A stretch of DNA of 32,000 bases, from positions 240,001 to 272,000 of the forward strand of contig NZ_OZ239769.1 of the NCBI RefSeq assembly GCF_965196625.1, given 5' to 3'. The stretch comes from Candidatus Saccharimonadota bacterium. Lineage in GTDB: Bacteria; Bacteroidota; Bacteroidia; Cytophagales; Amoebophilaceae. Below the pieces are notes generated by a model. That model had not been told where the DNA came from. It saw only the letters and a program-made list of their open reading frames with translations, and did no database searches. The translations under genes were made by a program, and so were the position numbers. This document shows, one piece after another, positions 18,008-18,117 of this stretch (positions are counted from its first letter, which is position 1; every line of letters begins with the position of its first letter).

Positions 18008-18117
18008 ATGCGCACTTTCACCTAACGTTTTCCTTGTATTGATACAAGCAGATAACGTATAGAAGCCTAATAGGCTAATAAATAGGCTTATCCTATAGCA
18101 TGTATATTTTTTTTCAT
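18008..18117 (-). other. Orphaned lipoprotein signal-peptide leader of the ankyrin gene, separated from its ATG by an A8 tract
   Basis: The sequence in frame with the 17150-18007 ORF encodes ..EKKYTCYRISLFISLLGFYTLSACINTRKTLGESAH-MH. The ATG at 18117-18115 is followed by A8 and is in a different frame (it reads MKKNIHAIG-stop). An A9 tract would give MKKKYTCYRISLFISLLGFYTLSAC. Confidence 0.7.

Follow-up and report, generated by a model that had tools for sequence, protein, structure and literature searches.

A one-base-short A tract separates a lipoprotein-type leader from its start codon in a Cardinium ankyrin gene beside recA: a probable young frameshift in a fast-evolving tandem family

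The stretch of DNA analysed here, termed the window, is 32,000 nt long, and all coordinates refer to it unless a locus label is given, with minus-strand genes described in gene order. The RecA encoded in the window (18434-19438, minus strand) was 95-96% identical to the RecA of Cardinium sp. TP and of Cardinium cBtQ1, and the window was therefore assigned to Cardinium (Amoebophilaceae), an insect/mite endosymbiont. In the gap between recA and tamB we found four tandem minus-strand genes with one common leader, namely an ankyrin gene followed by paralogs 3, 2 and 1. The leader of the ankyrin gene, which is of the lipoprotein type, was observed out of frame with the family start codon, from which it is separated by a tract of eight A residues. 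Homologous loci are labelled L001 (a 2.1-kb ENA metagenome scaffold), L002 (Cardinium sp. TP), L003 (Cardinium cBtQ1), L082 (the cEper1 plasmid pCher), L083 (the complete Cardinium genome CP101107.1) and L085 (a Logan-assembled, short-read strain). The following features of the ankyrin gene were observed, where ORF denotes an open reading frame.

18125..18127, minus strand: TAA closing the leader frame upstream; the homologous position in L085 gene 2 is ATG..TAT, which is used as a start
18115..18117, minus strand: family start codon ATG, out of frame with the leader; its homologue in the intact L001 ortholog serves as the start codon there
18107..18114, minus strand: A8 tract (a Lys-codon run, T8 on the plus strand), one base below the in-frame 9-nt spacing; the gap in the DNA alignment falls here
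18088..18117, minus strand: out-of-frame ORF of nine codons, MKKNIHAIG, plus TAA (18090-18088); the current product of the family ATG
18008..18115, minus strand: start-less lipoprotein-type leader and linker (EKKYTCYRISLFISLLGFYTLSAC INTRKTLGESAH), with the lipobox LSAC at 18055-18044
17150..18007, minus strand: 285-aa ORF from the first in-frame ATG (18007) to the stop (17150), the ankyrin body, free of other stops or frameshifts when set against the ortholog
17834..17923, minus strand: hydrophobic segment, predicted as a transmembrane helix, lying between the leader and the ankyrin domain, Kyte-Doolittle window means 1.6-2.1
17369..17566, minus strand: ankyrin-repeat region, residues 185-250 of the fused protein, with matches to Pfam Ank_4, Ank, Ank_5 and Ank_2

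Exactly eight A residues followed the ATG on the minus strand and were themselves followed by TATACATGC, giving the context ACT-ATG-AAAAAAAA-TATACATGC, and the reading frame from this ATG stopped after nine codons, as a sequence-only reading of the region had described. The same reading had claimed that the leader frame is open upstream of the body and has no start codon. We found this frame to be open as far as 18124 (reading RYYEKKYTCYRISLFISLLGFYTLSACINTRKTLGESAH), and no ATG, GTG or TTG was present in it between the TAA at 18127-18125 and the ATG at 18007. Because this TAA lies just upstream and the leader frame has no start codon, the leader is untranslatable, and the same two observations ruled out an alternative upstream start for the gene. 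When aligned with L085 gene 2, the ankyrin gene showed ATT-ATT-AAA-TAA at the place of ATG-ATT-AAA-TAT. Addition of a single A to the tract gave one continuous 322-aa ORF beginning MKKKYTCYRISLFISLLGFYTLSAC and containing the leader, the transmembrane helix and the ankyrin region, so that the predicted fusion of ATG, leader and body by one extra base was borne out.

The fused N-terminus, MKKKYTCYR-ISLFISLLGFYT-LSAC, contained a basic n-region, a hydrophobic core and a lipobox, all recognised by pattern and alignment. Lipoprotein signals were called on a lipobox of the form [LVI][ASTVI][GAS]C located ~20-25 residues from the start, and the leader of the ankyrin gene kept all six positions that are invariant in the family (L, I, L, L, S and C). 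These features point to a signal peptidase II (SPase II) lipoprotein signal peptide, the product of which would be lipidated. The ATG at 18007 lies 13 codons beyond the lipobox cysteine. A structure model also placed a helix at the predicted transmembrane segment, with low confidence, and equivalent hydrophobic segments were found in the L001 ortholog and in the L003 and pCher proteins described below. The ankyrin region matched Pfam Ank_4 at 25.8 bits (cut-off 22.7, E 1.3e-5), while the matches to Ank, Ank_5 and Ank_2 were below their own cut-offs; the ankyrin identity of the region holds modestly on these profile matches. AlphaFold modelled the 285-aa product poorly (mean predicted local distance difference test score 44), and the model adds nothing to the ankyrin call.

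A strongly hydrophobic helix was observed ~40 residues past the lipobox cysteine in every family member. If the lipoprotein is cleaved and a transmembrane helix follows, the ankyrin domain would face the cytoplasm at the inner membrane, an odd position for a protein presumed to interact with the host.

A protein search covering 5.8 billion clusters returned P0002, the 336-aa protein of L001, as the sole true homolog of the ankyrin body (46% identity), the other match being the window's own protein. P0002 begins MEKRYACVKVGLLIGLLSFHVLSAC and aligned through the leader, linker, hydrophobic helix and ankyrin region. When the L001 ortholog was compared with the window, the alignment ran in one frame from 18115 to 17171 (46% over 339 aa, E 6e-89), and because this single frame includes the leader, the ankyrin frame and its leader are not a product of chance. 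The start of the L001 ortholog reads ATG-GAAAAAAGG-TAT, with 9 nt between ATG and TAT and the leader in frame, while that in the window reads ATG-AAAAAAAA-TAT, with 8 nt, and the DNA alignment of the two contained a single-base gap exactly at the tract. The same architecture, in which a lipoprotein-type leader is joined by a ~40-residue linker to a hydrophobic helix, with ankyrin repeats at the C-terminus, was intact in a 539-aa cBtQ1 protein encoded downstream of recA (L003 7262-8881) and in the annotated ankyrin protein WP_014934992.1 of pCher (L082 3983-4954). By these alignments the ancestral gene is a leader fused to an ankyrin body, and the fused orthologs and paralogs back the earlier suggestion that an intact family-type leader has been cut from its ATG by a short tract. 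Other searches added little: GTDB species genomes and JGI metagenomes scanned with peptide patterns for the ankyrin gene gave no matches, exact-protein look-ups of RecA and of the 285-aa ORF gave no record, and only three short family members came out of a search with the leader profile, although these led to loci L083-L086.

We surveyed 14 family leaders from 8 loci. An in-frame ATG was present in 13 of these, leaving the ankyrin gene of the window as the sole member without any. The n-region of the family leader follows M-(K/E/N)-K-(K/R)-Y, and AAA accounted for 72.6% of the Lys codons in the window; a run of A residues behind the ATG is therefore a coding by-product. The run after the ATG was A9 in paralog 1, AAAAAG in paralog 3, A6 in L001 gene 2, AACAAAAAA in L002, AAGAAG in L003 and AGAAAAA in pCher. 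An uninterrupted tract was thus not kept across the orthologs and family members, including the L001 ortholog with its GAAAAAAGG. The spacing from ATG to the conserved TAT was 6 or 9 nt in those members that have the TAT and still start at the family ATG. In the window the paralogs and their starts were located as follows.

16580-17062, minus strand: paralog 3
16161-16583, minus strand: paralog 2
16581..16583, minus strand: replacement start codon of paralog 2, in frame and five codons upstream, overlapping the paralog 3 stop as ATGA; the product begins MTLQYEKKYRC...
16560..16570, minus strand: family ATG of paralog 2 (16570-16568) and A8 (16567-16560), then TAT; the same one-short spacing as in the ankyrin gene
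15458-15823, minus strand: paralog 1
15779..15790, minus strand: ATG (15790-15788) and A9 (15787-15779) of paralog 1, in frame, MKKKYIH...

The A9 of paralog 1, called cassette 1 in the sequence-only reading, was in frame as that reading had stated. Its description of the ankyrin gene was likewise right, but the identical ATG-A8-TAT arrangement in paralog 2 had been missed. From its old ATG, paralog 2 encodes MKKNIDALG and then a stop. The L085 ortholog of paralog 2 (L085 4394-4440) reads ATG-TAAAAAAA-TAT, again with 8 nt, has a stop (TAA) directly after the old ATG, and starts at an upstream ATG (MIKYEYHVKKY). It follows from this comparison that the one-short spacing truly exists in the genome, that it is older than the split of the two strains, and that the family copes with it by a new start codon and not by recoding. 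Judged by these alignments, the shift in paralog 2 is an old, compensated frameshift, and the start-proximal tract shifts repeatedly across the family. Gene conversion between the leaders of paralog 2 and the ankyrin gene was considered as the source of their common A8 and was rejected, as the DNA identity of the two leaders was only 72%, like that of other pairs.

The short tract could instead be an assembly or sequencing error at a homopolymer, in which case the true tract would be A9 and the gene an ordinary, intact lipoprotein-ankyrin gene. One-base contraction of homopolymers is the typical residual error of long-read assemblies, and the ~1.16-Mb contig suggests an assembly of this kind. 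A single added A restored a perfect 322-aa ORF with no other defect, and both the leader and the body were fully intact. However, all other coding A/T runs of at least 7 nt in the window (33 of 33) were in frame, among them three A9 runs and the A8 runs of recA and the tamL-like gene, so that the assembly is not generally unreliable at homopolymers. The same ATG+8 spacing in paralog 2 was borne out as real by the independent short-read (Logan) assembly of another strain, and real lesions are common in the leader family. We consider an error in the tract unlikely. A suspected frameshift of leuS at an A7 run near 31930 was dismissed, since the frame is merely open to the end of the window.

Lesions elsewhere in the family were of several kinds. 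Within 16040-16165 (minus strand) paralog 2 contained an in-frame TGA (16163-16161) ahead of a conserved basic tail, and the frame past this stop (KLQLGIDQFDDVRSIPFKKRHWLKLLRRRQWRELKKNLF) matched the basic C-terminal tail of a family protein of L001 (E 1.5e-6); paralog 2 is thus a probable nonsense truncation. The ankyrin gene of Cardinium sp. TP was frameshifted near its 3' end. In L083 both leader-ankyrin genes (2917-3891 and 10001-11346) were split into three consecutive short ORFs in different frames, and these would be either pseudogenes or homopolymer errors of that assembly.

Another possible reading is adaptive slipped-strand phase variation, with A8 and A9 toggling in the population and the product switching between off and on, or between a leaderless protein and a lipoprotein. 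The gene, which putatively encodes a surface or host-interaction protein, does carry a homopolymer at its 5' end, and A8 or A9 was observed at the same place in three of the four family genes of the cluster. Predicted lipoproteins of cEper1 are candidate cytoplasmic-incompatibility effectors, and their toxicity in yeast differs according to whether the signal peptide is present (bioRxiv 10.64898/2026.06.05.730497), so that loss of the leader could matter functionally. Nevertheless, an A8 run is short for a contingency tract and is explained by Lys codon usage, and the tract was interrupted or absent in orthologs and other members. The 8-nt state of paralog 2 was fixed across the two comparable strains and not variable. 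A full MutL is encoded in a related Cardinium genome (L083 13630-15426), so that mismatch repair is probably not wholly absent, which also counts against a switch, as does the little scope for contingency loci in a vertically transmitted, bottlenecked symbiont. Of all the explanations weighed here, population-level phase variation appears the least likely, its probability being very small. The broader proposal that the A8/A9 run is a working switch, at the level of DNA or of RNA, between a lipid-anchored exported protein and an off or leaderless state, recurring as a device in the tandem family by recA, is only slightly less improbable. If true, such a switch would tie in with the proposal on Cardinium lipoproteins and signal peptides in cytoplasmic incompatibility.

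Upstream of the ankyrin gene, and in part of its paralogs, the following sequences were found.

18392..18410, minus strand: terminator-like hairpin after recA, between recA and the ankyrin gene
18256..18326, minus strand: conserved promoter-like element of ~70 nt, AT-rich, with further copies ahead of paralog 1 and the L001 ortholog
18128-18135, 17074-17081 and 15800-15807, minus strand: TTAAAT/TTAAAC motif, also in family genes of L001-L003 and L083-L085

Copies of the promoter-like element were located at ~15935-16012 (minus strand, paralog 1) and at L001 ~404-481, with the pattern TTTATTTGGAATTATATTTATTTTTTT...GTAATTGTATG..TTGCTGCCAT, and we regard the element as probably the family promoter. 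Paralogs 3 and 2 were without this element and may be co-transcribed with the ankyrin gene. Nearly all members had the TTAAAT/TTAAAC motif ~9-12 nt ahead of the family ATG; it is a candidate translation initiation region or promoter -7 box.

Relative to intact orthologs and paralogs the ankyrin gene is disrupted in both its frame and its start, which is the mark of a frameshift pseudogene. We hold with moderate confidence that it carries a young one-base deletion, a loss-of-start frameshift reflecting the erosion of a membrane-targeted ankyrin gene in a fast-evolving tandem family. The AAA-rich basic start of the leader places a run of 6-9 A residues directly behind the ATG, and in the course of events that we propose, replication slippage would have removed one base, so that A8 took the place of the 9 nt. 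A ribosome that initiates at the family ATG would now make MKKNIHAIG and then stop, the full-length lipoprotein would be lost, and the first usable start would be the ATG at 18007. At most, traces of the lipoprotein would be made when, on rare occasions, RNA polymerase adds one A (+1) or a ribosome slips by -1 on the A run, possibly together with some leaderless product. We infer that the deletion is real in the genome and recent and that expression has largely been lost. Indels in A/T homopolymers have been described as key events in the inactivation of endosymbiont genes (PMC3017870).

Several observations weigh against a young inactivating deletion or limit what can be concluded about it. 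No further stops, indels or lost conserved residues were found in the leader or body when compared with the ortholog. The intact invariant residues and the lesion-free body fit a recent event, but the lack of secondary decay is equally compatible with continued slippage-based expression; the lesion may thus be young, or the gene may still be in use, or the base call may be in error. A dN/dS (ratio of nonsynonymous to synonymous substitution rates) of ~0.5, with dS ~0.74, was obtained against the L001 ortholog, which points to a fast-evolving leader family but shows past constraint only and is silent on the present. As the upstream element is retained, the ankyrin locus is probably still transcribed, although the element may instead have been kept for the downstream paralogs. 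Finally, just one ortholog, a distant one, was found among the 5.8 billion protein clusters.

Continued use of the gene would require a leaky rescue, in which A8 is real and a useful amount of full-length lipoprotein is made through a +1 A transcript or a -1 ribosome slip on A AAA AAU. The repair of the frame requires exactly such a +1 A in the messenger RNA or a -1 ribosome shift, and the gene shows no secondary decay; it also has the pattern of slippage-rescued endosymbiont genes, with one indel confined to an A/T run and the remainder undamaged. Among transcription errors in A/T runs, single-base insertions predominate, and they increase exponentially as the run gets longer (PMC5574713); iterated AAA codons allow ribosomes to slide (PMC4363877); and a figure of ~30% corrected transcripts from frameshifted Blochmannia/Buchnera genes is quoted from Tamas et al. 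2008 in PMC3017870. Yet with the Escherichia coli RNA polymerase, insertion slippage on A runs first becomes detectable at A8, where its yield was barely measurable (PMC6260861), the Blochmannia study tallies only runs of at least 9 nt as long poly(A) tracts (PMC3017870), and a survey of the Buchnera transcriptome found no restored reading frame (PMC5574713). No downstream stimulatory RNA structure was indicated when the fold of the 5' region was compared with shuffled sequences (z = -0.9), and an Rfam scan found no element at the 5' region. The heptamer A AAA AAU is present, but with no stimulatory fold and no conservation among homologs the site does not qualify as a programmed -1 frameshift. 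Moreover, the A8 arrangement was not conserved in the L001 ortholog, and family members with the same spacing use a new ATG. Any leaky rescue is likely to concern a small fraction of the product, and we judge rescue at a useful level to be improbable, much as we do the assembly error.

A leaderless protein translated from the ATG at 18007 would be another way to keep the gene in use, retaining the transmembrane helix and ankyrin domain with a changed location or topology. The 285-aa ORF from this ATG is intact, and the hydrophobic helix begins 28 residues after the Met and could act as a signal anchor. In the ortholog, however, the Met at 18007 was not conserved. This ATG is also uncoupled from the 9-codon ORF, which stops ~80 nt before it, the RNA immediately upstream of it is predicted to be locally paired, and no surveyed family member is built with such a leaderless start. 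We therefore consider a functional new start at 18007 quite unlikely, more so than leaky rescue. Among the four options offered by the sequence-only reading, early pseudogenisation is the one favoured by our analysis, given the unconserved tract, its origin in Lys codon usage, the truncated or fragmented family genes of this and other strains, and the compensation of the ATG+8 spacing by a new start in paralog 2 and its L085 ortholog; no positive evidence was found for a phase-variation switch.

The wider neighbourhood of the gene includes dnaK, an ATP/ADP translocase gene, tamB, a tamL/bamA-like gene, the RNase G gene and an IS256 transposase gene. The recA-tamB gap (window 14665-19438) carries leader-family genes also in L002, L003 and L085 and is a conserved hotspot with one to four such genes according to the strain. 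An ankyrin body was present in the gap in the window, L002 and L003 and absent in L085. The ~790 bp downstream of paralog 1 (14665-15457) contained no ORF longer than ~80 aa on either strand and may represent what is left of a longer family gene after decay. An intact IS256-family transposase was located at 28823-30037 (plus strand), and a 107-aa ORF at 30018-30341 (plus strand) overlapped its 3' end, had no family match and contained A7 and A8 runs. The window also encodes a 721-aa MutS-family protein (4761-6926, minus strand), which scored 118 bits against the MutS equivalog cut-off of 480. The cBtQ1 genome paper contained no statement about mismatch repair or homopolymers.

As a young frameshift, the ankyrin gene would be a textbook case of accessory-gene loss in a reduced symbiont genome, in which an A run shrinks by one base and the export signal is gone. 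On this reading, one Cardinium ankyrin/lipoprotein effector candidate is marked out as probably lacking function in this strain, which may be of use when the effector repertoires of strains with different reproductive phenotypes are compared. The start-proximal A run appears to be a recurrent weak point of the leader family, with an upstream ATG recruited in at least one lineage. Should heterogeneity of the tract or corrected transcripts prove true, the gene would be a rare slippage-dependent putative effector outside the gammaproteobacterial nutritional symbionts.

Homopolymeric tracts of surface proteins form the contingency loci of Neisseria, Haemophilus, Campylobacter and Helicobacter. The ankyrin gene resembles these in that it encodes an exported or membrane protein and that its frame is set by the length of a homopolymer close to the 5' end; it differs in that the tract is short, stems from codon usage, is not kept in orthologs and belongs to a vertically inherited endosymbiont. 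A likeness was also found with the poly(A) frameshifts of Buchnera and Blochmannia (PMC3017870), which share the single-base indel in an A run, the AT-rich reduced symbiont genome and the otherwise intact gene, and to which the same two readings apply, a first step of erosion or a slippage-rescued gene. In contrast to those cases, the tract here is only A8 (long in Blochmannia being at least 9 nt), it lies at codons 2-4 and removes the start and signal peptide instead of truncating the body, and it affects a gene of a fast-evolving accessory family and not a housekeeping gene. The heptamer A AAA AAU is formally slippery, like the programmed -1 sites A AAA AAG and A AAA AAC (PMC5009743), and a -1 shift on it restores the frame, but it has no stimulatory structure and no conservation, and the zero frame is only 9 codons long. 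The cEper1 lipoproteins CAHE_0406 and CAHE_p0043 (bioRxiv 10.64898/2026.06.05.730497) are likened to the ankyrin gene product by description only, as predicted lipoproteins. The leader-transmembrane-ankyrin proteins of cBtQ1 and pCher share with it the leader consensus ..LLIGLLSFNTLSSC..TRQ, the helix and the C-terminal ankyrin repeats. In other Cardinium strains the gene is likewise located in the recA-tamB gap, and it is in the strain described here that its leader is without a start codon.
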